A stretch of DNA of 18,544 nt from a virus. The translations under genes and the position numbers were made by a program. The first letter of the stretch is position 1. Every line of letters starts with the position of its first letter. The stretch is taken from positions 1 through 18,544 of the IMG/VR virus record IMGVR_UViG_3300045988_133636. One strand, written 5' to 3'. The notes under the pieces are model-generated. The model was given only the letters and a program-made list of their open reading frames with translations, did no database searches and was not told where the DNA came from. Shown in pieces: positions 1-16,679 of this stretch.

Positions 1-78
1 GTAATAGGGGGTGTACTCATTTTTTATTTTTTCCCCCAATGGGGTGGTGGAAATGACGTAATTATTTCTATGGAAATT
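1..78. repeat. Left inverted terminal repeat (78 bp); presumed protein-primed replication origin
   Basis: Bases 1-78 are the exact reverse complement of 18467-18544, compared base by base. Identity breaks at position 79. ITRs together with a protein-primed family-B polymerase gene are the hallmark of phi29-like linear genomes. Confidence 0.97.
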
Positions 79-102
79 TATTTTATTTTTCTCAAAAATG
101 TG

Positions 103-131
103 TTGACATTAGGTTAAATATTTAGTATAAT
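103..131 (+). promoter_or_regulatory. Sigma-A type promoter for the left early genes
   Basis: TTGACA (103-108), 17-nt spacer, TATAAT (126-131). It lies just inside the left ITR and points at the first plus-strand ORFs. Confidence 0.8.
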
Positions 132-249
132 TATAAGTGTCAAGGGGGTTACACTTGACTAGTAAAATACAAATTTATAGTGGAGGTAGACTTCACTTAC
201 TGGTAACAATATCTTGTACAAAATAATTAATAAAATGGAGGAATTTAAA

Positions 250-615
250 ATGGCTAAATTTTTAAACAAATTAAAAGAGGAACAACAAGGGTGTGAATTA
301 TTTGAAGGCAGAGAAGCACTAAAAATTAATGCCTTATTAGGTAAGGAATTAACACTTAGCAACATTGATGTAGTTAAGAATATCACTGATAAATTCACAG
401 GAGAATTAAAATCTGTTATATTATTAGGATTTGAAGAATATCCAAAAAATTTCGTTTATGCTAATTCACCAATAACAAACTTTTTCTTAGGTGTAGCTGA
501 TGGTGATTTCAAAGGAATGAAAGAAGAAATCAAGGATAATCATATTACTGTAGAAGTTGAACAACTTCATAACAAGAAATATAATAATGATTATTTTTGG
601 TTAAAAGTTCTATAA
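250..615 (+). CDS. Hypothetical early protein (122 aa)
   Basis: ORF track 214-615. I prefer the ATG at 250 because GGAGG (237-241) lies 8 nt upstream, and neither the track start at 214 nor the ATG at 235 has an RBS. No motif recognised. Confidence 0.75.
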   Translation: MAKFLNKLKEEQQGCELFEGREALKINALLGKELTLSNIDVVKNITDKFTGELKSVILLGFEEYPKNFVYANSPITNFFLGVADGDFKGMKEEIKDNHITVEVEQLHNKKYNNDYFWLKVL

Positions 616-633
616 TTAAGGAGGAATTAAGAA

Positions 634-891
634 ATGGTTAATGAAATTTTATTATCTTTATTAGATGAAGAAAGAACAGTAAACAGAAAGGTTGCTTTAC
701 TTGCTAATGACGGAGTGAGAGAATACTCAAAAACAAATCCAATGGATATGGAGTATATGCCTAAGGTAGAACAAAAATTAAACTTTTTAGGTGTTAAGTA
801 TCAAAAGATGGAAACGCCTAAGAGATATATAATACAACTTTTAGAAGTTGAAAAAGAAGAAAAAGAAGAAAAAGAAGAAATAACTGAATAA
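634..891 (+). CDS. Hypothetical early protein with acidic EKE-repeat C-terminal tail (85 aa)
   Basis: AGGAGG RBS upstream of the ATG at 634. The C-terminus VEKEEKEEKEEITE is encoded by three tandem 9-bp units gaaaaagaa (852-878). A terminator follows. Confidence 0.75.
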   Translation: MVNEILLSLLDEERTVNRKVALLANDGVREYSKTNPMDMEYMPKVEQKLNFLGVKYQKMETPKRYIIQLLEVEKEEKEEKEEITE

Positions 892-895
892 TATT

Positions 896-920
896 AAGGA
901 GGTTAAAACCTCCTTTTTAT
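896..920 (+). terminator. Rho-independent terminator after the left early genes
   Basis: AAGGAGG..CCTCCTT stem (about 896-915) followed by a T run (914-918). Confidence 0.75.
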
Positions 921-930
921 TTAATTAATA

Positions 931-950
931 TGTGAACAAACTGTAAACAA
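931..950. promoter_or_regulatory. Copy 1 of a conserved 20-nt element TGTKAACAAANTGTAAAYAN
   Basis: TGTGAACAAACTGTAAACAA. It matches 16663-16682 and 18440-18459 at 16 invariant positions, in the same orientation on the plus strand. It lies between the terminator and the fibre module. Confidence 0.55.
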
Positions 951-987
951 AATTAACAAGTTATTAATAATTAAAGGAGGTGATAAA

Positions 988-1302
988 TTGATTAAAGTTG
1001 ATTATCACCTAAATATGGAGGTTTCACATGGTGATTCAGGTTGTTTATATTTTGGTAGTAATCCTTATGTTTTTGAAGGTGGGGAAGAAATAACATTTGA
1101 TGTATTTATAGGTGATGATGTTATATTCTCAAAGAAGTCAAGTATTGTAGATAGGGGATTATTATTTTTAGAATTAACAAAACCTGAAATTGAAAGTATT
1201 CCTATAGGTGATTTTAGTTATAGGGTGTTCGCTAAGTATGATAATGGTTCATTAAGTGAATATGTTATTAACTCAAAAGAATTTAAAGTTAAGGAGGGAT
1301 AA
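988..1302 (+). CDS. Hypothetical protein (104 aa), first gene of the fibre/appendage module
   Basis: TTG start at 988, preceded by AGGAGGTG (975-982). The stop at 1300-1302 is tightly followed by the next gene. No motif recognised. Confidence 0.65.
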
Positions 1303-1304
1303 TT

Positions 1305-1544
1305 TTGGGATTCCTTAAACCATTTATAGGTGTTGCTGGTCCTAGAGGTCAAAAAGGTGACAAGGGAGAAAAAGGCGACATTGGGAAAAGAGGTCCAATA
1401 GGTCCAATAGGTCCAAGAGGTCCAGCGGGTCCACAAGGTCCAGCGGGTCCAGCGGGTCAAAATGGAGTTATTGAAAATTTAAGTTTTGAAATTGGAGAAG
1501 ATGGTCACTTGTATGTTACGGGTGCTAATAAAGGAGGAGAATAA
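1305..1544 (+). CDS. Collagen-like protein 1 (79 aa, about 14 Gly-X-Y triplets)
   Basis: TTG start 6 nt after AGGAGGG (1292-1298). It has an uninterrupted [43 protein letters not shown] tract and a short C-terminal [12 protein letters not shown] motif. Confidence 0.8.
1392..1454 (+). repeat. Seven tandem 9-bp units (ggtccaNNN) encoding GP-X collagen triplets
   Basis: ggtccaata x2, ggtccaaga, ggtccagcg, ggtccacaa, ggtccagcg x2. The same ggtccagcgggtcc strings recur at about 1618-1645 and 1760-1810 in the next two genes. Confidence 0.9.
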
Positions 1545-1545
1545 A

Positions 1546-1731
1546 ATGGCTGTAAAACAAGGTGGAAAAATTGATTTAGGAAGTGTTGTGGGTCCTCAAG
1601 GTCCTAGAGGTGAAGCGGGTCCAGCGGGTCCAGCGGGTCCAGCGGGTGCTAAAGGAGATAAGGGAGATACGCCAAAATTTAGATTTACTGTTGAAGGTGG
1701 TCATTTATATATGGAGGAATTAACTGAATAA
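1546..1731 (+). CDS. Collagen-like protein 2 (61 aa, about 9 Gly-X-Y triplets)
   Basis: ATG at 1546, preceded by AGGAGGAG. This is in frame with track ORF 1486-1731, but the upstream part overlaps gene 1 and has no RBS. It contains GPQGPRGEAGPAGPAGPAGAKGDKGDT followed by FTVEGGHLYMEE, the same motif type as gene 1. Confidence 0.8.
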   Translation: MAVKQGGKIDLGSVVGPQGPRGEAGPAGPAGPAGAKGDKGDTPKFRFTVEGGHLYMEELTE

Positions 1732-2111
1732 TGGCTAAACATGATTTAGGCAATGTTCAAGGTCCAGCGGGTCCGATAGGTCCAATTGGTCCAATGGGTC
1801 CAGCGGGTCCTAGCGGTTTAACTGATATTAACACTGATAGAGAGGGTTTATTAGGCTCTATTGTGTTAGGTGAAAAAATATTAATCCAGTGGGGTTATTA
1901 TGCTATTACTAAAGGTGACGCATGGGAACGAATTAATATAAATAGACCATATAAAAACGGTAATTATAATGTACAAATATCTCCTTATTGGCGTGAGGAT
2001 TACCACGATATTTATTTAGGTGTAATTGAAACAGATGGTTTTAATGTGGCTTGTGTTGGTCAACCTAAAAATGAAATGGGTGTCTATTGGTTTACAATAG
2101 GCGAAATATAA
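1731..2111 (+). CDS. Collagen-like protein 3 with about 90-aa globular C-terminal domain (126 aa)
   Basis: The ATG overlaps the previous stop (TAATG). It contains [19 protein letters not shown] (6 triplets) followed by a non-repetitive domain. Confidence 0.8.
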   Translation: MAKHDLGNVQGPAGPIGPIGPMGPAGPSGLTDINTDREGLLGSIVLGEKILIQWGYYAITKGDAWERININRPYKNGNYNVQISPYWREDYHDIYLGVIETDGFNVACVGQPKNEMGVYWFTIGEI

Positions 2112-2114
2112 GAT

Positions 2115-2139
2115 AAGGGGGCATTGTCCCCCTTTGTTT
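2115..2139 (+). terminator. Hairpin, possibly a partial terminator, after the collagen genes
   Basis: AAGGGGG (2115-2121), loop CATTGT, CCCCCTT (2128-2134), then TGTTT. The T tract is interrupted, so read-through is likely. Confidence 0.45.
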
Positions 2140-2153
2140 AATGGAGGTAAAAA

Positions 2154-3947
2154 ATGAAAGATATATTAAATAAAATTGGTAAATGTAATGTTTCTTGTGA
2201 TTCTATTCGTTCTATATATCAATGGGATGGTTTAACATGGCAAGAATTAATCTGCAAAGTATTTGAAGGTGTTAATAACTGTATAGAAACCGTTAATAAA
2301 TACACTGGAATAATAGAAGAAGTTTTAAAATGGATAGCTAGTGAGGGTTTAGAAGAAGAAGTTAGAAAAGGCTTAGATAGAATAATTGAAGATGGCACAT
2401 TATCCGAAATTATTAATGGAGAAATTTTCGGTAATATTCAAGATAAGTTAAGAGAATTAGAAGGTTTAATCAATGAAAATAAAGAAGAAATAAAGGAAGT
2501 AAAATCTGAAATAGAAACATTAAAAAATGAAATATTAGAGGAAGTTAAAAAAGCTTTAAAAAACATTACTGAAAGAGTAGAAAAATTAGAAAACAAGCCC
2601 CAAACTACTCAATTTTTCATATTAAAAAACGCTGTAGATTATGGAGATTCAAGTATTATAAAAGCGGATGATGGTTCTTTTTCCATGATAGATTGTATGT
2701 GGGAAACAAACTGGGGGGCATTAGTGGAGCAATTAGAAAAGATTGGTGTTAAGAAATTAAAGTATTTATTTATCACTCATTTCCATAGTGACCACATAGG
2801 AAACGCCCCAGCGGTTATTAATAAATATAAACCTGATTATATTGTTTATAAATCAGGAATTGATTTTGATAGGTTACCCGCTGTTGAAAAAGAATGGGAC
2901 ACAAAAGGTTATTTTGAAAGAATGATACAAGCTTGTAAAGATAATGGAGTTCATGAAATAATAGCTGACGACCAAGAAATAAAAATCGGAATAAATGACA
3001 GTGTTCAATTATTTGGTTCTCACTTTTATGATTATAGTAATTTAAATGCAATGAGTGTAAACTATATGCTTAAATCTAAAGGAATTAAAGCGGTATTTCC
3101 AGGGGACAGTGCAAAAAGCACTGAATTAGCAATTAAGGATAAAGTAGGTAAAGTTGATTTTCTTAAATTATCTCACCACGGAGCGGATGGAGGTAATTCA
3201 GATGATTGGTTTAGTGTTTTACAGCCTGAATTTTGTATGATTAATAGGGTTGAACTTTATAAAATAGATATAGTTAAAAGTTTTGCTTTAAAAGCTATTA
3301 AATTCGGTGGTAAAGTTTATACTAACGATAATAATGATTTTTGTTCTTTTAATATTGATGATGGTTGTATTTACCCTACTTGTAAAGAATATCCATTCCC
3401 TTTACAGTTTTTAGATTACTGGGATGGGACTTATAAAATGACAGATACAACTGGAAAAATAGCGACAAAGGGAATTTACCCATACAAAACAGATTATTAT
3501 TTTGTTAAAGATAATGGATTTATTGCTCAAGGTCAATGGGTAAATTATCACGGTGTTGATTACTACGCAGATTCATCAGGAAGATTGGTAAGAAATGTTT
3601 TCATAGAGGGTACTGATAATGGTCACCCAGTTTGGTATTGGATTAATGAAAAATGCGAAATGGTTCTTGATTGGACATTTGTAAATTATAAAAATAATCT
3701 TTACATTATTAAAAATAATGGGATGATGTGTGATGATATGATAGTGGAATATCAAGGCGACCATTACAAGGCTACTAAGGGAGGTCCATTATTATTAAAT
3801 GATTGGTTTCAAGATGGTTCTGATTGGTATTATTTCAGATTTGATGGTCGAATGATTAAGAATAAAACATTAGTTATAAATGGGAAATGGTACACATTTG
3901 GTTCAGATGGGAAGTGTTCTAATCCTGATGGTGAACCAATAAGTTAA
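2154..3947 (+). CDS. Appendage/receptor-binding protein candidate: coiled coil + metallo-beta-lactamase-fold hydrolase + cell-wall-binding repeats (597 aa)
   Basis: GGAGG RBS. Residues about 60-150 are heptad-rich. It has an HFHSDH (HxHxDH) motif and a later LKLSHHGADGGNS signature typical of ComEC-type MBL hydrolases. The C-terminal 170 aa hold about seven 20-aa aromatic repeats (DYYFVKDNGFIAQGQW, VDYYADSSGRLVRN, DWYYFRFDGRMIKNKT, KWYTFGSDGKC) like CW_binding_1/choline-binding repeats. Confidence 0.8.
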   Translation: MKDILNKIGKCNVSCDSIRSIYQWDGLTWQELICKVFEGVNNCIETVNKYTGIIEEVLKWIASEGLEEEVRKGLDRIIEDGTLSEIINGEIFGNIQDKLRELEGLINENKEEIKEVKSEIETLKNEILEEVKKALKNITERVEKLENKPQTTQFFILKNAVDYGDSSIIKADDGSFSMIDCMWETNWGALVEQLEKIGVKKLKYLFITHFHSDHIGNAPAVINKYKPDYIVYKSGIDFDRLPAVEKEWDTKGYFERMIQACKDNGVHEIIADDQEIKIGINDSVQLFGSHFYDYSNLNAMSVNYMLKSKGIKAVFPGDSAKSTELAIKDKVGKVDFLKLSHHGADGGNSDDWFSVLQPEFCMINRVELYKIDIVKSFALKAIKFGGKVYTNDNNDFCSFNIDDGCIYPTCKEYPFPLQFLDYWDGTYKMTDTTGKIATKGIYPYKTDYYFVKDNGFIAQGQWVNYHGVDYYADSSGRLVRNVFIEGTDNGHPVWYWINEKCEMVLDWTFVNYKNNLYIIKNNGMMCDDMIVEYQGDHYKATKGGPLLLNDWFQDGSDWYYFRFDGRMIKNKTLVINGKWYTFGSDGKCSNPDGEPIS

Positions 3948-3950
3948 ATT

Positions 3951-3966
3951 TGTTTCACGTGAAACA
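3951..3966. promoter_or_regulatory. Perfect 16-bp palindrome TGTTTCACGTGAAACA, copy 1
   Basis: Exact palindrome starting 4 nt after the stop of 2154-3947. It is identical to copies at 3976, 9399 and 9425. Confidence 0.9.
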
Positions 3967-3975
3967 TTAATATTA

Positions 3976-3991
3976 TGTTTCACGTGAAACA
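3976..3991. promoter_or_regulatory. Perfect 16-bp palindrome TGTTTCACGTGAAACA, copy 2
   Basis: Exact repeat, 25 bp start-to-start from copy 1 and 20 nt upstream of the ATPase start codon. Confidence 0.9.
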
Positions 3992-4010
3992 TTAAAAGAA
4001 AGGAGTAATT

Positions 4011-5039
4011 ATGTATTTTGAATTAAAACCATATTTGGAAAAATACCCTAATAAATTTTATTACGCTTTTTTAGGTGGTAGAGGAACGGGAAAAAGTTTT
4101 GATATAAAGGATAATATATTTAATGATTTTATGGAAAAAGGAGAGCAGGCAATTGTATTAAGAAGGTATGTAAATCAGCTTGACGACATAAAAGAGAATT
4201 ACATGGATGATGTTATTTTAGAAAAATATCCTGATTTTATGAAGGATATTACTTATAAGCATGACGCTGTTTATTATCAGGACAAGCCTTTTATTTTCTT
4301 TATGGGATTAAATAGAAAAGGAGTAATGAAGGCGGGGGCTTTTCCTAAAGTTACTAAAATAGTTTATGAAGAATTTACCCCTCAAGCTGGTGAAAAATAT
4401 CTATCAAAGGAATATCAAAGATTGGAAACATTGGCAATCACTGTCGATAGATTTCAAGATAGAGTAACCTGTTTTCTTTTAGGTAATACAACTACTACCT
4501 ATAACCCAGTTTTTCAGGCTATGAAATGTTATCCACCACTTGATTTTTCTGTAAAAGAAAATAATGAAATAATGATTGCTAGGTTTCCAACTAATGAAGA
4601 ATTAGCTGAAAAACAAACTAATTCAAGGCTGGGGAGAGTAACAAAAAGGTCGGGAACATATTCATATAATATTCAAAATGAAAACTTGTCTAATGAAATG
4701 TTTAATGTAATACCTAAGAAAGAATTTTTTAAAATTCCTGAGGTTCAAAAGGATGTATTTAACCCAGTAATTACTTGTAAAATTGATGAAAATAAATATG
4801 TTAGATTATGGCAAGGAAATTCAAATATTTTATTTGTTGATATTACAAATAAAGCTTCAAATATTCAATGTTTTTATGATTTTGATTTCCAAAATAAAGA
4901 TAATGTGCATATCAGCATGATTGACCACCCAGTGCTAGAGGTTTTCACTTTTTTATATAAACAAGGTAGGGTATTTTTTAGTAATATTGAAGCTAAAACT
5001 TTCGGGGTACAAATATTTACATTTAATGACCCTATTTAA
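4011..5039 (+). CDS. DNA encapsidation (packaging) ATPase, phi29 gp16-like (342 aa)
   Basis: AGGAG RBS. Walker A is FLGGRGTGKS near the N-terminus and the Walker B-like segment is KIVYEEF. Size and layout match small-podovirus packaging ATPases. Confidence 0.8.
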   Translation: MYFELKPYLEKYPNKFYYAFLGGRGTGKSFDIKDNIFNDFMEKGEQAIVLRRYVNQLDDIKENYMDDVILEKYPDFMKDITYKHDAVYYQDKPFIFFMGLNRKGVMKAGAFPKVTKIVYEEFTPQAGEKYLSKEYQRLETLAITVDRFQDRVTCFLLGNTTTTYNPVFQAMKCYPPLDFSVKENNEIMIARFPTNEELAEKQTNSRLGRVTKRSGTYSYNIQNENLSNEMFNVIPKKEFFKIPEVQKDVFNPVITCKIDENKYVRLWQGNSNILFVDITNKASNIQCFYDFDFQNKDNVHISMIDHPVLEVFTFLYKQGRVFFSNIEAKTFGVQIFTFNDPI

Positions 5040-5068
5040 AAGCATGATAATTTTATCATGCTTTTTTC
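5038..5068 (+). terminator. Rho-independent terminator after the ATPase gene
   Basis: AGCATGAT (5041-5048) pairs with ATCATGCT (5055-5062), followed by TTTTTT (5063-5068). Confidence 0.8.
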
Positions 5069-5079
5069 TTTACTTAGTA

Positions 5080-5106
5080 TTGACATTATGTTATAATTAA
5101 TATAAC
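5080..5106 (+). promoter_or_regulatory. Possible promoter for the terminal protein-polymerase operon
   Basis: TTGACA (5080-5085). The best -10 is TATAAC (5101-5106) with a short 15-nt spacer. The position between the terminator and the next RBS fits. Confidence 0.5.
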
Positions 5107-5128
5107 GAATAAATGGAGGTTTTAAGTT

Positions 5129-6028
5129 ATGAGTAATAGAAATACAAGGAAACAGTATTATAATAGAGTTTATCAAGAATATCAAGTTAATGGCTGGGAT
5201 TTTGAGAAATTAGTTGGGAGATATAAACATGATACAATTATTAATAATCCTAATGCTTATGAGGTGTTTAAAAATAGAGTTATTAAAGACAGAAAGTTTA
5301 GAAAAGAAAGGGCAAAAATAGAAGAAGAATACAAACAAATTCAAGAAAAAAGTAAGAAACAAGGTTATGAAATAAGGCAAAAACAATATGAAGATATAGA
5401 CAGAAAAAAGATGATAAATGCGGAGAAAAAAGGATTTATCAATAAAAATAATGTATTTTTAAATAAGAAACAAGTTAAACAATTAAAAAATATTTATACG
5501 GAACATAAAGATTTATACAAAGTTTTTAAGGAAAAATTAATTGAAGATTACGGATTTAATAAAGATGATTTGGCATTATTGGAGGGGGAAATTTTACAAA
5601 GTAATAAGGGCAATACATTTCAATTACCTATTAATATTAAGGGATTCGAAAACTTTGAAAACTTATTAAATAGTTTTACATTACAGGGTAACGTGGATAA
5701 CCTAATTAAGATTTATAAAAAAGATGTTAAATCTTTAGAAGAAAATAGAATGACTATTAATGATAGAATAGAAGGAAAAGACTTTATAGATTTGTTTGAA
5801 CAATTACATGAGGATAGAGTTATCACTGAGGGTGAATTAATTGATTTAAAAAATATGATTGCACATACAAGGTTTACCACAAAAGAAGCTATTAGAAATC
5901 ATTTTGGGAAATTAACTAATCTAATAGAAAGTGACCCGCAAACGGGTGTTAAAATAAGGAATTATTATGCTACCTTAAAGAATTGGATAGTATTATTTGA
6001 TAAGGCTGATTATACAGTAAGAAGATAG
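5129..6028 (+). CDS. Putative terminal protein (299 aa)
   Basis: A basic, Lys-rich protein encoded immediately upstream of, and apparently co-transcribed with, the protein-primed polymerase. Its size is near phi29 TP (266 aa). The assignment is by position only; no sequence motif was recognised. Confidence 0.55.
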   Translation: MSNRNTRKQYYNRVYQEYQVNGWDFEKLVGRYKHDTIINNPNAYEVFKNRVIKDRKFRKERAKIEEEYKQIQEKSKKQGYEIRQKQYEDIDRKKMINAEKKGFINKNNVFLNKKQVKQLKNIYTEHKDLYKVFKEKLIEDYGFNKDDLALLEGEILQSNKGNTFQLPINIKGFENFENLLNSFTLQGNVDNLIKIYKKDVKSLEENRMTINDRIEGKDFIDLFEQLHEDRVITEGELIDLKNMIAHTRFTTKEAIRNHFGKLTNLIESDPQTGVKIRNYYATLKNWIVLFDKADYTVRR

Positions 6029-6040
6029 GAGATTTTTAAA

Positions 6041-8437
6041 ATGTTAAATTATAGTTATTATCAGGAAAATGTGAATAGTCAATTTAATTATATAATATCT
6101 AAAGTTAAAGAAAAAAGACTTGAGGAAATAAGAGAAGATATTTCTGAAAATCAACAAATATTAAATAATATTAAAGCTAATATAGATAAATATATATTAT
6201 TTGATGAAAAATTACCATATCCTGAAACACTAATAAAAACTAAAAAATCTTATTCCGCTGACTTAGAAACGACTACAAAAGTAAATGAAAATGGAGAAAT
6301 ATATACATTTGCTTATGCTTGTGGTTTTATGGAAGTTAATAAGAAAAATCAACTTATTCATAGTAATAATATTTCTGATTTTGTGGACAACCTAGAAAAT
6401 TTACCAGCCTTAAATTCAGAAATGTATTTTCATAATTTAACGTTCGACTTAACATTTATCTTAATTGAATTAATTAAACGTGGTTATGAACCTATTATAC
6501 CGCATTTTTTAGATATTGAAGAAATAAAAAATTGTAAAGTAACTGGTGATGGTACAGTAGATAAAGAATTATTTATAACTAAAGAAATGGATTATAAAAA
6601 TAAAGATATAAAACCATATTCATTTGATTATATTTTCGCTAATGGCTCATTTTATGAATGTACTATTTATTTTGATGAAAGAAGAATTTTAAAGAACGGA
6701 AAACATGAAACTGTTACAAAAAAATTAGTATTAAAAGATAGTTTAAAATTAGTTCCTTCAACTTTACAACAATTAGCTGACGGTTATTGTGGTTTAAAAT
6801 TATCTAAAGATGGTATTGACCATGATAAACAAAGACAAGAAGGAAAAGAACACATATTACACCATTCAGAAAAAATTTATTATTATGAAGATATATACGC
6901 ATTAAAAGAATTTATTAGAATTATGATTAAGGAAGGCGTTAATATATCAGGTGAAAATATTAAATTTGATAGAATGACATCAGCTAGTTTTGCATTTAAT
7001 CAATACAAAGAAAGTTTAAAAAAAGAATATGATAATTTTGTAAAATTAGGTGAATACCCTTCATGTGATGAATTTGTAGAAATATTTTCTGAGTTATCAT
7101 TAAAGTATGCTGACAGAAAAAATGGACCATCTAAGGAAAAAATATTCAGGGCTGTTTTTCCAGTTTTATCAGCTCAACAAGACGGATTTATAAGAGAAAG
7201 TTATTTCGGTGGAATAACAATGAAAAATAAAAGGTTATTAGCTGAATTAGAAGAAATTAATTATAAGGAAAATATTAATAAACAAAATAGTAATTTAGGT
7301 ATGTATGGGGTAACTTATGATGAAAATTCAATGTACCCTGATAAAATGAATAGGTCTTTATTACCTTATGGTAGACCCAAAAATTTTAATGGAAACTATG
7401 AGGATTTAGAAGATTCTATTAAATCAAAATATCCTTTATATATTCAGAAAATTAGAGTTAAATATTTTAACTTAAAACCTGATGGAATACCAATGCAACA
7501 ATTAAGAAACTCAGTCGACTTTAACGGTAGAGAATTTATAGAAAGTAATTATTGTGAAAAATATGATAATTATGTTACTTATACATTAGTTTTAACTAAC
7601 GTTCATTTAAAAGATTTTTTTAGAAATTATGAGGTTGACGGAATAGAATACTTAGGTGGTTTATGTTTTAAAGGTACTCATGGTTTATTTAAATCATTTA
7701 TTGAAAAATGGTATAAAATTAAACAAGAAAATAAAGGTGTTGTTAAATTAGTATCAAAGTTAATATTAAATTCTTGTTATGGTAAATTTGCAAGTAATCC
7801 TGTTCGTTCTTTCAGATTTATTAACTTAAATGATGATATTTTAGATGTATCTAAATATGATTACGAGGGGGAGGAAATAAACTATTTTGAAAGTTCTATT
7901 TATACCGCTGTAGGTTCTTTTATAACTTCTTACGCTAGAGAAGATTTATTACAGATGTTACACAATAATTTTGATAGATGGTTATATGCGGACACTGATT
8001 CTTGCCATTTATTGGGATTTGATGATGCAAAAGGGGACAAGCTAGACATTAACAACACTGGTGAATTAGGATTATGGAAAAGAGAATGTTATTTCTCAGA
8101 TTCTATCTTTTTAGGTGCTAAAAGATACGCTGAAAATGAAATTAAATCAAAAGAAAATTTAAAATTAAATAGTAAATGGGAAATAAAGTGTTGTGGGCTT
8201 CCAAAAAATATAATGTCAAAAATAGATATAAAATCATTTGGATTTATTGACCCCTCAATCAATGAGGATGAATTATTTACAAGTGATGATAAAGAAGATT
8301 ACCATTACTATAAAGATAAAAATTGCACTGAGAAAGTAGTTGGTATATGGCAAAGTAGAAAGAAAAAAAGTGTTAAAGGTGGGATAATAATTAAATCGCA
8401 ACCTTATAAATTAAATAGTGCTTTTTATTTAAGATAA
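6041..8437 (+). CDS. Protein-primed family-B DNA polymerase (798 aa)
   Basis: Motifs read directly: Exo I ADLETTT, Exo II YFHNLTFDL, Exo III YYYED, motif A DENSMYP, motif B KLILNSCYGKF, motif C YADTDS, and KxY GAKRYA. All parallel the phi29 gp2 motifs. Confidence 0.95.
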   Translation: MLNYSYYQENVNSQFNYIISKVKEKRLEEIREDISENQQILNNIKANIDKYILFDEKLPYPETLIKTKKSYSADLETTTKVNENGEIYTFAYACGFMEVNKKNQLIHSNNISDFVDNLENLPALNSEMYFHNLTFDLTFILIELIKRGYEPIIPHFLDIEEIKNCKVTGDGTVDKELFITKEMDYKNKDIKPYSFDYIFANGSFYECTIYFDERRILKNGKHETVTKKLVLKDSLKLVPSTLQQLADGYCGLKLSKDGIDHDKQRQEGKEHILHHSEKIYYYEDIYALKEFIRIMIKEGVNISGENIKFDRMTSASFAFNQYKESLKKEYDNFVKLGEYPSCDEFVEIFSELSLKYADRKNGPSKEKIFRAVFPVLSAQQDGFIRESYFGGITMKNKRLLAELEEINYKENINKQNSNLGMYGVTYDENSMYPDKMNRSLLPYGRPKNFNGNYEDLEDSIKSKYPLYIQKIRVKYFNLKPDGIPMQQLRNSVDFNGREFIESNYCEKYDNYVTYTLVLTNVHLKDFFRNYEVDGIEYLGGLCFKGTHGLFKSFIEKWYKIKQENKGVVKLVSKLILNSCYGKFASNPVRSFRFINLNDDILDVSKYDYEGEEINYFESSIYTAVGSFITSYAREDLLQMLHNNFDRWLYADTDSCHLLGFDDAKGDKLDINNTGELGLWKRECYFSDSIFLGAKRYAENEIKSKENLKLNSKWEIKCCGLPKNIMSKIDIKSFGFIDPSINEDELFTSDDKEDYHYYKDKNCTEKVVGIWQSRKKKSVKGGIIIKSQPYKLNSAFYLR

Positions 8438-8450
8438 TTTTTAAAAAGTA

Positions 8451-8479
8451 TTGACATTACCCCCAATTAATGATAACAT
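8451..8479 (+). promoter_or_regulatory. Extended -10 promoter
   Basis: TTGACA (8451-8456), then TGATAACAT (8471-8479), read as TG-n-TAACAT with a 17-nt spacer. The string TGATAACATATA is shared with the promoter at 9104. Confidence 0.65.
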
Positions 8480-8530
8480 ATAGTTAGTTGAAAAATAGGG
8501 GATTAATTCCCCTTTAAGGAGGTTTACAAA

Positions 8531-8827
8531 ATGAAAAGAAAAAAGATTACTGACGTTGAAAAAGAACTTGAGTTATTAGAAGTTAGATTAGATGTTTATT
8601 CATCATTAAAAAATGCTTTATTTGAATTAGGATTACAAGACTATTACGTCACTGATGATATAGAAGATTTAAATGACAGAATAGAAAAATCGAAATTATC
8701 TTGTCAACAAATTTGTTTAAATTTAAGGGAACAAATACCTAACATTGAAAGTAATGTGAAGTTTAGAAAACTTATTAAAAAACATAACTTTGAATATTAT
8801 TCATCCCATTTTAAAGGAGGATTTTAA
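8531..8827 (+). CDS. Hypothetical protein (98 aa)
   Basis: AAGGAGG RBS. A small AGGGGA/TCCCCT hairpin (8497-8513) lies in its leader. No motif recognised. Confidence 0.75.
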   Translation: MKRKKITDVEKELELLEVRLDVYSSLKNALFELGLQDYYVTDDIEDLNDRIEKSKLSCQQICLNLREQIPNIESNVKFRKLIKKHNFEYYSSHFKGGF

Positions 8828-8829
8828 AA

Positions 8830-9126
8830 TTGAATAAAAATGATAGATTAAAATTAATGAAGGTTTTTGATAATATTTGTAAAAACAATCAGTATGTTCA
8901 ACACTATAAAGGTTGTAGAATAATATCATATAATGACCCCGAACATGAAAATGTAATATTTCAATTTCATCATAATTGTAATGATTTTTGTTATGCACAT
9001 ACTTTTATTTTAAATGATTTTTATAATAATATTGATTTAGATTCTTTCATTGAATATTATAATTTAAGCTTAGAAATTTTTAGAGAAAAACTTCAAAATT
9101 ATATTGACAATAATCTTATAGTATGA
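8830..9126 (+). CDS. Hypothetical protein (98 aa, Cys/His-rich)
   Basis: TTG start 9 nt after GGAGG (8816-8820), coupled to the previous stop. No motif recognised. Confidence 0.65.
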   Translation: MNKNDRLKLMKVFDNICKNNQYVQHYKGCRIISYNDPEHENVIFQFHHNCNDFCYAHTFILNDFYNNIDLDSFIEYYNLSLEIFREKLQNYIDNNLIV

Positions 9127-9132
9127 TAACAT
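9104..9132 (+). promoter_or_regulatory. Extended -10 promoter inside the 3' end of the preceding ORF
   Basis: TTGACA (9104-9109), 17-nt spacer including TG (9124-9125), TAACAT (9127-9132). The -10 block TGATAACATATA is the same as at 8471. Confidence 0.6.
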
Positions 9133-9168
9133 ATAATTAAAGAAAGAGATAAATTGGAGGTAATTAAA

Positions 9169-9366
9169 ATGACAAATTGTGAAGTTGGATTTGAACAAAT
9201 TAAATTCTCATGTGAGAAAGGTAACAAACATGGAATGGATAAAAAAGGTTGGTTAGAATTATATGGAAAATGTAAGGTTTTAGAGTTTCAATGTTTCCAA
9301 GCTAGTGACCCAATAGTGTACAAAGTTCAATCATTAATAGAAGATATTGAAAAAGAAATATTATAA
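9169..9366 (+). CDS. Hypothetical protein (65 aa)
   Basis: The ATG at 9169 has GGAGG (9156-9160) 8 nt upstream. The track start at 9154 is a TTG lying inside that RBS. Confidence 0.7.
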   Translation: MTNCEVGFEQIKFSCEKGNKHGMDKKGWLELYGKCKVLEFQCFQASDPIVYKVQSLIEDIEKEIL

Positions 9367-9395
9367 AAAAGGAGGGAAAATTTTCCCTCCTTTTT
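9365..9395. terminator. Bidirectional rho-independent terminator where the two arms converge
   Basis: AAAAAAGGAGGGAAAA pairs with TTTTCCCTCCTTTTT. A-run and T-run flanks give a U tract on both strands. Confidence 0.85.
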
Positions 9396-9398
9396 ATA

Positions 9399-9414
9399 TG
9401 TTTCACGTGAAACA
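9399..9414. promoter_or_regulatory. Perfect 16-bp palindrome TGTTTCACGTGAAACA, copy 3
   Basis: Exact copy immediately after the bidirectional terminator. Confidence 0.9.
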
Positions 9415-9424
9415 TTTATTTAAT

Positions 9425-9440
9425 TGTTTCACGTGAAACA
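9425..9440. promoter_or_regulatory. Perfect 16-bp palindrome TGTTTCACGTGAAACA, copy 4
   Basis: Exact copy, 26 bp from copy 3, ending 1 nt before the endolysin stop codon (9442-9444). An extra half-site GTGAAACA lies at 9455-9462. Confidence 0.9.
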
Positions 9441-9441
9441 T

Positions 9442-10116
9442 TTATATTTTCTCAGTGAAACAATATAATCCTAAATCATTTTTTATTTTACTTTCAGCTT
9501 TTTCAGCTTCTTCTTTAGTTCTAAATCTTTGAACAACTACACGGTAAAAATCAGGTTCATTTTCTAAAGGGATAGAAGGGTCAACCGCATGACATAAAGC
9601 CCTTGTTAATGTTTCATATGGACAAGGTGACCATATATTAATATCTTTTTGACTATCACAAAAACAAGTTTCAAAGATAATATTTGGTGCGTCTAAGTCT
9701 TTCATTTCCCACTGATTACCTACCTTAACACCTCTATTAAAGAAGCCTAATTTTGAATATTCTTCACATATTCTTTCAGCGACATTCCAAACTCTTGAAC
9801 CATTGGCAACTAAGCACTCAACCCCAAAAGCTTTACCGTTATAAGAGTTCATATGAAGTGATATAAATATATCAACACCAGCACTATTAGCTTTATTTAT
9901 TCCCTCATAAACTTCTGCCCTTTCTGTACTTGCATTTGAATTACAATCAATTACTGTATGACCATATTTCTCAAAACATTCTTTAACATATTGATAATAA
10001 ACTTTCATAGTAGTATGTTCATTTCTTAAACCTATTGCTCCCAAACAGTTTGGAGAATGACCAGCCCTTAAACCTATTCTTAATTTTCTACTTTTTAAAA
10101 TATCATCTAAATACAT
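9442..10116 (-). CDS. Endolysin, N-acetylmuramoyl-L-alanine amidase (Amidase_3 type) with short SPOR-like C-terminal segment (224 aa)
   Basis: AGGAGG RBS. The pattern RAGHSPN..G, DIFISLHMNS, GVECL, NRGVK, IIFETCFCD follows CD27L/PlyPSA-type Amidase_3 catalytic domains. The last 35 aa or so (YRVVVQRFRTKEEAEKAESKIKNDLGLYCF) look like one beta-alpha-beta SPOR half-repeat. Confidence 0.85.
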   Translation of the reverse strand: MYLDDILKSRKLRIGLRAGHSPNCLGAIGLRNEHTTMKVYYQYVKECFEKYGHTVIDCNSNASTERAEVYEGINKANSAGVDIFISLHMNSYNGKAFGVECLVANGSRVWNVAERICEEYSKLGFFNRGVKVGNQWEMKDLDAPNIIFETCFCDSQKDINIWSPCPYETLTRALCHAVDPSIPLENEPDFYRVVVQRFRTKEEAEKAESKIKNDLGLYCFTEKI

Positions 10117-10194
10117 TTTTAAAAACCTCCTAAATTATTATATTTGTCGATTTGTCTGATTTGGCACATTTCACAATTTTGCCCCGTTTTTGGA

Positions 10195-10242
10195 AGCCCT
10201 TCGGGCGTATCCTCACCCTGTGAGGATATTCGCCCGTGGGCT
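10195..10242 (-). other. 48-nt G+C-rich imperfect hairpin (20 bp) in the lower collar-endolysin intergenic region
   Basis: AGCCC/GGGCT + CGGGCG/CGCCCG + TATCCTCAC/GTGAGGATA with a 3-nt loop. 30 of 48 bases are G/C in an AT-rich genome. There is no flanking U tract on either strand. Confidence 0.8.
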
Positions 10243-10249
10243 AGATTAA

Positions 10250-10984
10250 TTACATAAATAACATAAATAAGTTTTCGCATTCTTCAAGATACATTTCAAA
10301 AATATTTATTAATACACTTCTCCATTTTTCTAATAATTCTGCTGAACTTGTTACACCTATGTTACCCTGAGAAATTAACTCAGTTTTTTCCAATTCTTTT
10401 CCCTTTTCATCTTCTTTTAATTTACCATTTGTTACAGAATTACTTGTATTGGTAGATGTATTTTTTGATGTGTTAGTAGAGTTTGAATTTGCTGTTATAT
10501 TTTCAATATTTTCATTTGTAATATAACCTTCACCTACTCTTGCTAAGGCTCCATCAATAGAACTTTCTTTACCATTGGATGAAGAGGAACTATTTTCCTT
10601 ATTCAGTATTTCATTTAATGTATCATCATTTGATTTTAAATTATTTTCATTTTCATTAAGTTGATTTTTATTATTTTCAGTTTGTAACTCTCTGATAAAA
10701 GTTTCTTTTAAATCCTTATTTAATAAGAAATCAATTTTTTTAGAAGCAAGTTCTGTTTCATATAATTGCTTATAATATGGGGCTATTCTATTAAGTGTAG
10801 CCATTAATCTTTGTTGGAATCTTCTTACAGTTTCAAAACCTATTTCATGAAAATAAAAATGTTCAATAAATCTCTGTTCAAAAACTCCTTTTAAATCTTC
10901 ATCTATAAAGTCATATGGAAAAGCAAAAATATTAAAATTCGGGTCTTCTGCTAAATATCTGAGTTCTAACGTGAATTTACTCAT
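10250..10984 (-). CDS. Lower collar protein, phi29 gp11-like (244 aa)
   Basis: I prefer the ATG at 10984, which has an AGGTGA RBS and overlaps the portal stop by 8 nt, over the track start at 11017. The N-terminal FHEIGFETVRRFQQRL..IAPYYKQLY block resembles lower-collar proteins of phi29-like phages, as recalled from memory. The gene lies directly after the portal gene. The centre is an S/N/T-rich low-complexity segment. Confidence 0.65.
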   Translation of the reverse strand: MSKFTLELRYLAEDPNFNIFAFPYDFIDEDLKGVFEQRFIEHFYFHEIGFETVRRFQQRLMATLNRIAPYYKQLYETELASKKIDFLLNKDLKETFIRELQTENNKNQLNENENNLKSNDDTLNEILNKENSSSSSNGKESSIDGALARVGEGYITNENIENITANSNSTNTSKNTSTNTSNSVTNGKLKEDEKGKELEKTELISQGNIGVTSSAELLEKWRSVLINIFEMYLEECENLFMLFM

Positions 10985-11897
10985 GTATTTCTTCACCTTC
11001 TCCTTTTTCAAATTCATTTTTTTCTTGTGGAGGGTCTAATAAATCCCTAACTTTTATTACTGAAATATCTAAACCAAACATTTCATTAATTTTTTTACAA
11101 GCTTCTTTTCTCATTTTATAAGCGACATCAAGGTTATTTAAAATATAACCATTATTAATGTTAACTTCATCCACTAACAATCTTTCTCTTTTATCCTGAT
11201 TAGAGTTGTTATTTATTCCTAAAACATCTAATAAATCACTTTCAATTTCATGTTTTGCTTCATTTAATTTATCGATTAAAAACTCTGCTTTAGTATTTAA
11301 AACTTCTATTATAAAATCGTCTTTTCTTTTATTTCCTAAGCCCTTATCTTGTAGAATATATTCGTCACGTTCAATCATTTCCATAAATTTCTGAGCTGAA
11401 AGTTGCATATCTTTAGTTGTGTTTATAATGTAAGGTCGTCTTTGTTGTTTAGTATTTAATTTAATTGTTTTATCTATTTCAGAAATTAATTCTGTAAAAT
11501 GGTAAACATGATTAATAATAGGGTATCTTAAATCATTTTCAAATATTGGTACCCCCTCATCAACGTTTTTAGTTTCATTAATTCCGTTGAATCCGTAAGT
11601 AGTATAATCCACCCAATCTCCGTAAACATCAGGTGTATTTATTCCATAAGCTGGTAAACATCTAAACACCCCCGATTTATCTTTAAAAAACATTGCGACA
11701 CCAGTTAAATATAAAGCCTGTTCAATATGTCTACTTTCAACACCTTCGGGTAAATTCTCCCATCTGAACCTATTCATTGCTAAAGTTTGATATTGGTTTA
11801 ATAATCTAAACCAGTTAAAGTTATCTATGCAACAAGTCATATTTCCACGACCCGTTGCAACTAATAAATTATGAAATCCTGATGTTGTACTACTCAT
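10977..11897 (-). CDS. Upper collar / portal (connector) protein, phi29 gp10-like (306 aa)
   Basis: It contains NRFRWENLPEGVESRHIEQALYLTGVAMFF and PDVYGDW blocks typical of phi29-family connectors. Size is close to phi29 gp10 (309 aa). Confidence 0.8.
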   Translation of the reverse strand: MSSTTSGFHNLLVATGRGNMTCCIDNFNWFRLLNQYQTLAMNRFRWENLPEGVESRHIEQALYLTGVAMFFKDKSGVFRCLPAYGINTPDVYGDWVDYTTYGFNGINETKNVDEGVPIFENDLRYPIINHVYHFTELISEIDKTIKLNTKQQRRPYIINTTKDMQLSAQKFMEMIERDEYILQDKGLGNKRKDDFIIEVLNTKAEFLIDKLNEAKHEIESDLLDVLGINNNSNQDKRERLLVDEVNINNGYILNNLDVAYKMRKEACKKINEMFGLDISVIKVRDLLDPPQEKNEFEKGEGEEIHE

Positions 11898-12150
11898 TTA
11901 CTTTCACCCTTTTTATAATATTTGCTAAATCTTTTCTAACTTCTCCAAGTTCATTTTTGATAATGTCTTGATACTTGTCCTCTCTTTTATAACTCTCTTG
12001 TAACAATTCCTTATATTGTTGTTCTTGTCTTAATTCTCTTTCTTTGTTTTCATCTAATATTCGTGTTACCCATTGATAACCAGCATATGCAACACCTATT
12101 AATATAGCTGGTATAATACCGAAATTTGTTATCATTTCTCCTAAGTCCAT
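11890..12150 (-). CDS. Holin-like single-pass membrane protein (86 aa)
   Basis: AGGAG RBS. There is one N-terminal hydrophobic span (ITNFGIIPAILIGVAYAGYQWV) followed by a charged coiled-coil tail, a BhlA/UviB-like topology. It is the only obvious holin candidate in the late arm. Confidence 0.5.
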   Translation of the reverse strand: MDLGEMITNFGIIPAILIGVAYAGYQWVTRILDENKERELRQEQQYKELLQESYKREDKYQDIIKNELGEVRKDLANIIKRVKVNE

Positions 12151-12174
12151 TTTTTTATTCTCCTTTATTAAATT

Positions 12175-13458
12175 TTAATCTCTATATTGTCTTTCAGCGT
12201 TATCCTTTGAATAATCCCCCACGCTATATACCGCCATATCATCAACGTGCCATAACCTGATACCACGTTCAAAAATTCCTTTTAATTCTTCTAAATGAGA
12301 TTGAGGAATATTTTTAGTTTTCATATTACATTGAAGCATTTTTACGTAATTGTAATTTAATCTACTTCTTAAATCAGGTTTCATCATTTTATTTTGTTTG
12401 TAACCATATAAAGCAAAATAATCGCCTAATCTTTGAGCGTATTCCTCAGTTATTCCGAATCGATATAATTTGACTTTTCTGTCATTATTTCTCAAACCAT
12501 ACATTATATTAGAACCTTGAGAAACTAAAGTGTTAGGAGCTGTTTTCATGTCACTACTTTTTGCTAAATTAGATTGAATAATATTTTGTTTATTGTCGGA
12601 CCACGTTTCTATGTTTTTCCTTGTATTCATATCTCTTTCAAAGTAATTATAAACACCTGACATTCCAGCCTTAATCCCTCCAATAGGATTAAGTGAAAGG
12701 ATAGAACCAAGTACACCTAAACCACTATCAAAAGTACCAGCATATTTTCCTATTTGTTCGGCTTCCTGATTGTATTTATAATCCCTATTGTTATTAATTA
12801 AACTAGCTTTAACCGCTTGTTGAGTTTGGTTTTTACTTGTTGCTATCCAATTAGCGTATTGACTTTCAGTTGAAGGTAATTCGTTACCATCTGTTGACAC
12901 TAAAGCTTCTATAAAACCGTGTGTATCACCTTTATAATTTTGTACAAAAAATGAATAACTTCCACGTTCTGATAAGCTAAGTTTAACGCCTAAATCACAT
13001 TCATACGGACATAATTCAGGCTTTAAAACCAATGGTGGATTTAATCCATCTGAAATATGAATGAAAGAATAAGGAAATTGAAGTAATTTACTTTCATTTT
13101 TCCAGTGTCTTTCCATTATAAACTTACGCTCGGGGTACGTTTTAAATTTAGCAATAAATTTACTAGGATTTATTAAATTTTTAATTCTGAAAACCATTGG
13201 TTTTGTATTTAATTCAGGTCTTATTTTATCTAATTCCCCAAACCTTTCAGTATCATATGGAATACTTGCTAAATCTAAATCAATCCCTTTTAAAAAAGGC
13301 GTGTAAACAACTGAAACTAAACCAGTAGCGTTACCAATAACTTGAGAATATTGGTCGTCAAAATCAAGTTGATTATCTAAATAATAAAGATAAAAAGCAT
13401 ACGGTAAACCGTTAATTTTATTTTTCCATGTGTCCAGTGCTTCCTCTGTTACTGTCAT
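12175..13458 (-). CDS. Tail knob / distal tail tube protein candidate (427 aa)
   Basis: AGGAGG RBS, tightly coupled to the upstream tail gene. Its position between the capsid and collar genes matches phi29 gp9. No catalytic motif is present. Assignment is mainly by synteny. Confidence 0.5.
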   Translation of the reverse strand: MTVTEEALDTWKNKINGLPYAFYLYYLDNQLDFDDQYSQVIGNATGLVSVVYTPFLKGIDLDLASIPYDTERFGELDKIRPELNTKPMVFRIKNLINPSKFIAKFKTYPERKFIMERHWKNESKLLQFPYSFIHISDGLNPPLVLKPELCPYECDLGVKLSLSERGSYSFFVQNYKGDTHGFIEALVSTDGNELPSTESQYANWIATSKNQTQQAVKASLINNNRDYKYNQEAEQIGKYAGTFDSGLGVLGSILSLNPIGGIKAGMSGVYNYFERDMNTRKNIETWSDNKQNIIQSNLAKSSDMKTAPNTLVSQGSNIMYGLRNNDRKVKLYRFGITEEYAQRLGDYFALYGYKQNKMMKPDLRSRLNYNYVKMLQCNMKTKNIPQSHLEELKGIFERGIRLWHVDDMAVYSVGDYSKDNAERQYRD

Positions 13459-13461
13459 TTT

Positions 13462-15087: not shown

Positions 15088-15109
15088 TTATTTACTCCTT
15101 TCTAAGAAT

Positions 15110-15133
15110 AAAAGAACGGTTACCCGTTCTTTT
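15110..15133 (-). terminator. Hairpin with U tract directly after the capsid gene (attenuator/terminator)
   Basis: AAAAGAACGG (15110-15119), loop TTAC, CCGTTCTTTT (15124-15133). On the minus strand it starts 3 nt after the capsid stop and is followed by TTTTATTCTT. Confidence 0.65.
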
Positions 15134-15135
15134 AA

Positions 15136-16221: not shown

Positions 16222-16232
16222 TTTATTTCCTC

Positions 16233-16490
16233 CTATAATCTTTTTAATATATCATCATAAGTCACTACCTTTTCAGGTGCTTCTTTTGATTGCGTTTCTT
16301 GAGTGTTAAAATTTCCTCTTTCATATAGAACCTTATAAGCATTTTCTAATTCTATTTTTTCTTTTTTTAATTTAGCAATTTCAGAATCTCTCTCTATTAA
16401 ATCCCTTGTTAAAGTTTCAATATTAGTATTGTTATCACCTTTATTTTCAGGATTATTTGTATTATTTTCTTGACCCTTGTTATCTTCCAT
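16233..16490 (-). CDS. Scaffolding protein (85 aa)
   Basis: I prefer the ATG at 16490, which has AGGAGGTG upstream, over the track start at 16517, which lies inside the structured leader. The protein is small, acidic and helical/coiled-coil and sits directly upstream of the capsid gene. Confidence 0.65.
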   Translation of the reverse strand: MEDNKGQENNTNNPENKGDNNTNIETLTRDLIERDSEIAKLKKEKIELENAYKVLYERGNFNTQETQSKEAPEKVVTYDDILKRL

Positions 16491-16514
16491 ATTTAACACC
16501 TCCTTATATATAAC

Positions 16515-16595
16515 CACTAGGGGGGTAGTAGCAAACTACCCGAGCAATGTGTGGCGGTTTCACCCGTGCTACCCACTTTTAATCATTCCCTAGTG
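16515..16595 (-). ncRNA. Candidate structured RNA (three-way junction), possibly a pRNA-like packaging RNA or leader element
   Basis: Closing helix CACTAGGG (16515-16522) / CCCTAGTG (16588-16595). Hairpin GGGTAGT (16523-16529) / ACTACCC (16535-16541). Third arm GTGG (16551-16554) / CCAC (16573-16576) plus CGG (16555-16557) / CCG (16564-16566) with a 6-nt bulge. 42 of 81 bases are G/C. The strand is inferred from the adjacent minus-strand promoter. Confidence 0.5.
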
Positions 16596-16609
16596 AAGTT
16601 ACCAAAATT

Positions 16610-16650
16610 AAAAGCATGAGAAAAAGATTACCTCTTTAACTCATGCTTTT
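16610..16650 (-). terminator. Long hairpin with U tract between the early right operon and the structured leader
   Basis: AAAAGCATGAG (16610-16620) pairs with CTCATGCTTTT (16640-16650). An inner AAAGA/TCTTT helix is possible. On the minus strand it is followed by TTTTAATTTT. Its 5' arm abuts the -10 box of the capsid promoter. Confidence 0.6.
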
Positions 16651-16679
16651 ATTATAACATATTGTTAACAAATTGTAAA
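16651..16679 (-). promoter_or_regulatory. Near-consensus extended -10 promoter for the scaffold-capsid-tail operon
   Basis: Minus strand reads TTTACA (16679-16674), 17-nt spacer ending in TGT, TATAAT (16656-16651). Confidence 0.8.

Follow-up and report, generated by a model that had tools for sequence, protein, structure and literature searches.

The gene and the modules of its product

By sequence comparison, the 18,544-nucleotide stretch analysed here in full (the window; positions 1 to 18,544 of IMG/VR record IMGVR_UViG_3300045988_133636) represents the entire genome of a Clostridium perfringens podovirus of the phi29-like type (Guelinviridae, Susfortunavirus). It is 97% identical to vB_CP_qdyz_P5; CP1 and DCp1 are 96-97% identical to it across most of its length, and susfortuna, CPD7 and phiQ about 83%. 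Our subject is the gene at 2154..3947, whose product, a candidate neck/tail appendage, joins a metallo-beta-lactamase (MBL) domain to wall-binding repeats. We refer to it as the appendage protein. Its homologs are 98.5% identical in vB_CP_qdyz_P5 and 83% identical in susfortuna, CPD7 and phiQ. The gene and the predicted parts of the protein are as follows.

2143..2147, (+): GGAGG ribosome-binding site, 6 nt before the ATG (sequence read directly)
2154..3947, (+): complete coding sequence of the appendage protein, 597 aa, ATG start, stop included
2154..2429, (+): N-terminal helical anchor domain, aa 1-92 (phrog_17212, homolog identities, AlphaFold2 (AF2) model)
2436..2594, (+): coiled-coil stalk, aa 95-147 (heptad a/d pattern, AF2 helices)
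2607..3383, (+): MBL-fold catalytic domain of the Pce/ComEC clade, aa 152-410 (Pfam, HMMER, Foldseek)
2778..2795, (+): HFHSDH, aa 209-214 (H209, H211, D213, H214)
2886..2900, (+): E245-K-E-W248-D249, aligned to Pce E120-R-L-W123-D124
3045..3047, (+): N298
3105..3107, (+): D318, in PGDS
3171..3182, (+): SHHG, S340-G343, with H341/H342 aligned to Pce H228/H229
3408..3932, (+): seven to eight beta-hairpin repeats of the CW_binding_1/choline-binding type, aa 419-593

The first-pass annotation of this DNA had placed a coiled coil at the N-terminus. A coiled coil is indeed predicted, but only from aa 95: the preceding 92 or so residues form a separate helical domain, the anchor, whose helices AF2 predicts with a low local confidence score (pLDDT). 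Over aa 95-127 the heptad a/d positions are occupied by I, L, N, V, L and L, I, I, I, I, and after a stutter near aa 127-131 the pattern resumes to aa 145 with no proline. AF2 helices lie at aa 83-108 and 113-146, and the region gave weak matches to many coiled-coil Pfam families. Counting heptads in a fixed phase over aa 85-152 gave a weak result (9/20) owing to the stutter; a register-aware reading is clear.

The catalytic domain matches Pfam Lactamase_B above its cut-off (E 1.6e-10; 41.7 bits against 22.7), is modelled by AF2 with pLDDT mostly 80-97, and contains both the HxHxDH core and the SHHG signature described in the first-pass annotation. An HxHxDH motif arose in only 2 of 20000 shuffles of the protein. 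That annotation had also counted about seven C-terminal repeats, and AF2 models seven regular hairpins (aa 440-582, period 21, one of 26) plus a short hairpin at 419-430, all with pLDDT near 90; the chain ends about 11 residues after repeat r7. Choline_bind_3 is matched at E 7.6e-8 (32.6 bits, cut-off 27), and the matches to Choline_bind_3, _1 and _2 fall on aa 548-587. Two further points of the first-pass annotation hold as well. No signal peptide or membrane segment was found, there being no hydrophobic N-terminal stretch (the maximum 19-residue Kyte-Doolittle mean is 0.74), and the protein is the second largest of the genome, after the DNA polymerase (798 aa) and ahead of a protein of 541 aa. 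Searches of NCBIfam returned sub-threshold matches only. A fold search of BFVD found two strong unnamed viral matches (B6CXF5, F8UBN2) and otherwise only lysin repeat domains, and was uninformative for function.

Catalytic domain and repeats compared with Pce and ComEC

Sequence and fold searches both lead to Pce (CbpE/LytD) of Streptococcus pneumoniae, the enzyme whose pairing of an MBL domain with a choline-binding-type module the first-pass annotation had recognized here. The Pce structure 2bib is the top match by sequence in the Protein Data Bank, with a HMMER E value of 8e-19 for a single alignment that spans both modules (aa 192-573) and of 2.3e-29 for a profile of 18 family members. With the AF2 model as query, Foldseek likewise ranked 2bib first (E 3.2e-33), covering the catalytic and the repeat module, followed by the Pce catalytic domain 1wra (template modelling score, TM, 0.69-0.71), the choline-binding module of LytB and the MBL domain of ComEC. 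Against 1wra, HMMER gave E values of 2.1e-12 for the single sequence and 1.8e-18 for the profile. At about 20% identity, the two proteins share the order of an MBL domain followed by a superhelix of aromatic hairpin repeats of about 20 aa. Pce lacks the 150-aa N-terminal virion anchor and coiled coil, and has 10 repeats and an 85-aa C-terminal tail, whereas the appendage protein has seven to eight repeats and no such tail. Pce keeps a signal peptide (secreted, cleaved), which the appendage protein lacks; the former is a monomeric secreted bacterial enzyme, the latter a phage protein that is probably trimeric.

All metal-ligand positions of Pce, together with its E-x-x-W-D segment, align with the appendage protein. 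The HMMER alignment sets H209, H211, D213, H214, N298, D318 and H342 on Pce H85, H87, D89, H90, N183, D203 and H229, reportedly the ligands of the two-metal centre (Hermoso 2005, Garau 2005). The ligands are thereby in register with Pce, one of the points on which the first-pass annotation had made its reading depend. The seven positions are invariant among 18 relatives (47-83% identity), an alignment in which E245 and W248 are invariant too. To cover diverse relatives, we took 98 cluster representatives (clusters at 50% identity) and aligned their catalytic domains with that of the window protein. In this set of 99 sequences, the seven positions are conserved in 97-99 (98-99 for those of HFHSDH, 99 for N298, 98 for D318; 98 and 97 for H341 and H342), the seven together with S301 and G343 in 87-99, and the tryptophan of E-x-x-W-D in 75.

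Because the ligand positions are near-invariant across diverse relatives, conservation argues for a working metal site, not a binding-only shell. A receptor-binding protein that only binds, its MBL domain a dead scaffold or lectin-like binder and recognition left to the repeats alone, would resemble the decayed enzyme folds that are generally known in many phage receptor-binding proteins, and in the window protein the second residue of HxHxDH is indeed F, where the family usually has D. Residue 210 is no metal ligand, however, and conservation of this degree at the ligands and at S301 and G343 is expected only if metal chemistry is under selection. We regard a purely binding protein as the least probable of the alternatives considered. 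The substitution itself (F210, 2781-2783) lies next to the metal site: HFHSDH occurs in the window protein and its 83% relative, and HDHSDH in 16 other aligned members.

The same fold also occurs in the C-terminal MBL nuclease domain of ComEC (9ic4, 9vc6), which belongs to the same sub-clade and whose N-x-S, GD and HHG motifs align with those of the appendage protein; in ComEC, the domain belongs to a DNA-uptake channel of the membrane and has DNA as its substrate. Relatives of the appendage protein are variously labelled 'late competence protein', 'MBL fold metallo-hydrolase', 'BppU family baseplate upper protein' or 'hypothetical', and the first of these GenBank labels derives from the ComEC MBL domain, of the same sub-clade as Pce. 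One could accordingly picture a virion-borne or released ComEC-like nuclease whose MBL domain cuts DNA, for instance extracellular DNA in the matrix of a C. perfringens biofilm, with the repeats keeping it attached to cells. The 'late competence protein' labels, a weak match to TIGR00361 ComEC/Rec2 (E 1.7e-6) and the best TM-score of all, that of the 9ic4 MBL domain (0.76, root-mean-square deviation 3.8), fit such a nuclease, and the ComEC C-terminal domain is a metal-dependent nuclease (PMC8579336). Yet the TIGR00361 match reaches 26.5 bits, far under the family cut-off of 190, and we rejected ComEC membership: the MBL part alone matches and there are no membrane segments. In sequence, the catalytic domain by itself is closer to Pce than to ComEC by about seven orders of magnitude (E 2.1e-12 against 3.5e-5). 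It shares E-x-x-W-D with Pce; in ComEC the segment aligned there is 7 residues shorter and does not contain this motif. The entire two-module architecture fits Pce, and the modules that take the same place on this anchor in related phages (pectate lyase, GDSL-like) are directed at polysaccharides. A nuclease of this kind thus appears improbable beside a Pce-type enzyme.

Probable virion role and exchange of the module among phages

The N-terminal part of the protein links it to known appendages. Residues 4-136 match phrog_17212, 'pre-neck appendage protein' (E 1e-27), and over aa 5-99 the anchor shares 41% identity with the appendage of phiZP2. Mass spectrometry of CsCl-purified virions identified the homologous appendage of phiCP7R (PMC3362512). 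The appendage gene lies directly upstream of the encapsidation ATPase gene, the slot it also has in phiZP2, and the susfortuna promoter and terminator annotation puts the two genes in one transcription unit.

This slot beside the encapsidation ATPase is shared by phi29 gp12 and by the pectate-lyase-type appendages of phiCP7R, phiCPV4 and phiZP2, the three clostridial proteins also having an N-terminal anchor homologous to that of the appendage protein. Phi29 gp12 digests wall teichoic acid (PMC9863714), and its presumed job, to bind and degrade a secondary wall polymer, would be shared by the appendage protein. The bodies differ: gp12 and the pectate-lyase appendages have a right-handed beta-helix, whereas the appendage protein has an MBL domain plus hairpin repeats, with no pectate-lyase match in Pfam and no match to the autocleaved C-terminal chaperone of the gp12 type (Pfam, AF2). 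Unlike in the gp12 type, binding is delegated to a separate repeat module. The appendage protein is therefore a strict member of neither the Pce nor the gp12 family and combines features of each.

Exchange of one body for another on the same anchor can be followed in a metagenomic phiZP2-like genome of 18 kb (L006). The first 57 aa of its appendage-slot protein are those of the phiZP2 appendage (68% identity over 131 aa), and the remainder is an MBL and repeat module where phiZP2 has its pectate-lyase body. The first-pass annotation had proposed that an unrelated protein took over the gp12 activity; the comparison shows replacement of the module in the gp12-type slot, and the activity may have been replaced with it.

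Other virion platforms carry the module too. In more than 100 prophage proteins of C. perfringens, BppU_N is joined to an MBL and repeat module of about 53% identity. In PhiS63, the gene order is tape measure protein, Dit, Tal, BppU-MBL and fibre. Over aa ~128-593, such BppU-MBL baseplate proteins (for example PhiS63 gp16, phiCp-B, vB_CpeS-1181) have a module of about 53-55% identity whose active site is invariant; their N-terminus is the siphovirus baseplate anchor BppU_N (PF10651) and not the podovirus appendage anchor. Among more distant relatives, P0140 and P0143 are fusions of Tal (Prophage_tail) with the MBL domain. In P0124 (1354 aa) and P0125 (2214 aa), many collagen triple-helix repeats precede an MBL and repeat module of about 40% identity, and P0125 additionally has a pectate-lyase-like domain, so that by domain content the two look like fibres bearing one or two enzymes per chain. 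Taken together, the comparisons identify the enzyme and repeat block as a portable host-range module that replaces pectate-lyase, GDSL-like or other modules on the same anchor.

Between near-identical genomes the exchange is confined to a block ending at the appendage gene.

990..3998, (+): variable host-recognition cassette (blastn against CP1 and DCp1)
988-1302, (+): open reading frame (ORF), part of the cassette
1305-1544 and 1486-1731, (+): collagen-like ORFs, part of the cassette
1731-2111, (+): ORF, part of the cassette, followed by the appendage gene
3951..3991: tandem pair of the perfect 16-bp palindrome TGTTTCACGTGAAACA; it follows the stop codon of the appendage gene immediately and lies where the cassette ends on the right

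Against CP1, blastn aligned the window at 96-98% identity over 1-989 and from 3999 to the end, with nothing between; against DCp1, at 94-96% over 7-1655 and from 3997 to the end. The swapped block ends at 3997-3999, just past the appendage stop codon. The appendages of DCp1 (ORF7, 46%) and CP1 (gp21, 31%) match the window protein over the N-terminal ~100-145 aa only and are fully divergent thereafter. Since near-identical genomes keep the appendage N-terminus and swap the rest, the pattern is, at the level of genome comparison, the signature of a host-range cassette. In CP1 gp21 (L002 15149-16810, (-)) we observed the string 'IMIGDSTRE' and a sub-threshold GDSL_2 match (E 0.0016), which suggests an SGNH-type esterase as an alternative receptor-modifying module on the same anchor.

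Collagen-like genes upstream of the appendage gene were part of the first-pass annotation, and ORFs 1305-1544 and 1486-1731 do match Pfam Collagen. They travel with the appendage as one cassette, since the whole block is missing or replaced in CP1 and its part from 1656 onward is replaced in DCp1; these small proteins may assemble into a fibre of their own. When each is counted from the earliest TTG that could serve as its start, the two ORFs overlap by 59 nt. The true start of the second is probably near 1546, and in susfortuna the second gene begins right after the first. ORF 1731-2111 resembles phrog_23936 and, weakly, a Gp53-like tail-fibre C-terminus.

The palindrome TGTTTCACGTGAAACA occurs four times in the window (3951-3966, 3976-3991, 9399-9414, 9425-9440), in two tandem pairs, where 0.01 occurrences are expected. 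Its copies there are always intergenic, after the appendage gene and between convergent gene clusters, and the homology breakpoints with CP1 and DCp1 (3997-3999, 9425) coincide with them. Elsewhere it was found in L006 (5919, 7792, 9962, 12847), L004 (845, 5971), L002 (9264) and L003 (9703). The copies in the phiZP2-like L006, a different genus, are in intergenic gaps, one of them just upstream of the appendage gene. The palindrome could act as a terminator or operator, or mark a recombination boundary.

A virion appendage is what the anchor homology, the gene slot, the body swap in L006, the cassette swap and the presence of the module on BppU, Tal and collagen platforms jointly indicate, and on this comparative evidence we consider it quite likely that the protein is a structural appendage and receptor-binding protein, as the first-pass annotation had supposed. 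The repeats also match endolysin families (PHROGs 7854, 6745, 1110) and pneumococcal autolysins and lysins, and the gene lies on the polymerase strand, outside the main minus-strand cluster of head and tail genes. Both observations would suit a non-structural, soluble lysis or release factor that strips teichoic-acid substituents late in infection, in the manner of an endolysin accessory. A soluble factor of this sort would have to do without a signal peptide or membrane segment for export, in a genome that encodes a complete amidase endolysin elsewhere. It would leave unexplained an anchor homologous to a virion appendage verified by mass spectrometry, the coiled-coil stalk, the fusion of the same module to BppU_N, Tal and collagen in tail gene clusters, a cassette swap between near-identical phages that is typical of receptor-binding proteins, and the transcription unit shared with the encapsidation ATPase. 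We consider it very unlikely.

Collagen triple helices are trimers by definition. Phi29 gp12 and BppU are trimers as well, according to published papers. As all three are trimeric, the coiled coil of the appendage protein is most simply read the same way and, by analogy, probably forms a trimeric stalk.

The remaining gene content of the window is the standard set for phi29-like podoviruses of C. perfringens and includes genes for the major head protein, the upper collar and the lower collar. Further features are listed below.

2115-2134: G+C-rich, terminator-like bidirectional hairpin between ORF 1731-2111 and the appendage gene
4011-5039: encapsidation ATPase
6041-8437, (+), the strand of the appendage gene: type-B DNA polymerase, 798 aa
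9442-10116: amidase endolysin
12175-13458: gp9-like tail protein
13462-15087: lysozyme/M23-peptidase tail protein (tail peptidoglycan hydrolase)

Directly 5' of the DNA polymerase gene lies a 299-aa ORF (5129-6028, (+)) with no PHROG match, labelled 'glycoprotein' in CP1 and 'hypothetical' in other genomes; its position suggests the terminal protein of a protein-primed genome. In the comparison with CP1 and DCp1, the window ends (1-110 and 18454-18544) gave an inverted match to each other; by sequence these are inverted terminal repeats, which linear genomes with protein-primed replication are expected to have. Near the left end, at 103-131 (+), stands a perfect sigma-70 consensus, TTGACA-17-TATAAT, that corresponds to a promoter annotated in susfortuna. 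It was the only notable site in a promoter scan of the window, which otherwise stayed at background (29 found, 28.5 expected).

Proposed action on the cell wall and its significance

Combining these lines of evidence, we propose that the appendage protein is a neck/tail appendage, a receptor-binding protein, with a Pce-type MBL phosphodiesterase and wall-binding repeats, and assign this reading a probability of about 0.6. That it is an active Pce-like phosphodiesterase on a wall polymer has somewhat better than an even chance.

Several observations weigh against this proposal. AF2 confidence is low over aa 1-150, the part that would hold the protein on the virion, and virion presence is documented only for a protein that shares the N-terminal ~100 aa. 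Judged by fold alone, the appendage protein resembles the ComEC nuclease domain (TM 0.76) no less than Pce (0.71), and fold therefore does not fix the substrate class. Pce itself is monomeric and secreted (PMC4929436). We found no experiment on the appendage protein or a close homolog, and no paper in the searchable literature discusses it. Only repeat r6 (aa 550-571) has both canonical choline-site tryptophans, and for choline in C. perfringens walls our search returned no documentation, only mention of a putative choline kinase gene.

The last two points bear on the ligand of the repeats. By HMMER, the repeats match the choline-binding modules of LytB, LytA, Cpl-1 and Pce; by Foldseek, the choline-binding module of LytB, the combined repetitive oligopeptides (CROPs) of TcdA and TcdB, and glucansucrase repeats. 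A canonical choline cage consists of Trp at repeat positions 2 and 9 plus a Tyr of the following repeat. At the two Trp positions, r2 has W/D, r3 and r7 have T/W, and r1, r4 and r5 have neither, the residues that replace Trp outside r6 being D, L, H, I or T. By this count, there would be one or two canonical choline sites at most, and because r6 alone carries both tryptophans the ligand need not be choline. Nor does the repeat fold fix the ligand, since the CROP or glucan-binding repeats of large clostridial toxins and glucansucrases, which share the beta-hairpin solenoid fold, bind carbohydrates, not choline. The repeats are choline-binding-type in fold, and their ligand may be other than choline.

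In the mechanism that we propose, the anchor (the first ~92 aa) would attach the protein to the collar, with the coiled coil (aa 95-147) as a stalk, probably trimeric; each chain would bear a two-metal MBL domain and a repeat superhelix. The repeats would hold the virion on a secondary wall polymer, from which the MBL site would cleave a substituent attached by a phosphodiester bond, or one of whose own phosphodiester linkages it would hydrolyse. Cleavage would allow the virion to advance through this layer in the direction of the membrane; the tail peptidoglycan hydrolase (ORF 13462-15087) would then act.

The lipoteichoic acid of C. perfringens is reported to be decorated with phosphoethanolamine on a backbone of N-acetylmannosamine (ManNAc). 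As substrate, a phospho-amine head group such as phosphoethanolamine, carried by lipoteichoic acid or capsule, is our best guess; a phosphate-containing capsule is an alternative target. For the related C. perfringens podovirus CPS1 the capsule, a surface polysaccharide, is the receptor, and the 2019 paper presents it as the first receptor to be identified on the host of any C. perfringens phage (PMC6893597).

A wider proposal, which we advance tentatively and hold at somewhat less than even odds, is that a portable, receptor-destroying Pce-type module is shared by at least three virion designs and strips phospho-amines (phosphoethanolamine or phosphocholine) from atypical lipoteichoic acid or capsule. 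The three designs are appendages of two podovirus genera, siphovirus baseplates of the BppU or Tal kind, and collagen-like fibres. Enzymatic receptor-binding proteins are already familiar; new would be the catalytic fold on the virion, its portability across the three designs and the indication that phosphodiester decorations serve as receptors of C. perfringens phages. The searchable literature gave no description of an MBL-fold phage appendage, and the genome papers of PhiS63 and the phiCP26F group are silent on their MBL tail proteins. As far as the literature was searched, no MBL-fold enzyme had previously been described as an adsorption device of a virion, and this one would be the first.

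Very little is known of the receptors that C. perfringens phages use, or of the proteins with which they bind them. The appendage gene is a swappable host-range determinant of phages that are therapeutic candidates, for which the GenBank labels 'late competence protein' and 'hypothetical protein' are misleading. If confirmed, the proposed function would provide a cell-wall-binding or -modifying module for diagnostics or enzybiotics against C. perfringens. It would also add a new catalytic fold to the virion-borne receptor-modifying enzymes and would point to lipoteichoic acid or capsule with phosphodiester decorations as the likely class of receptor. Should the wider proposal hold, zwitterionic envelope decoration would be a major phage receptor determinant in C. 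perfringens.

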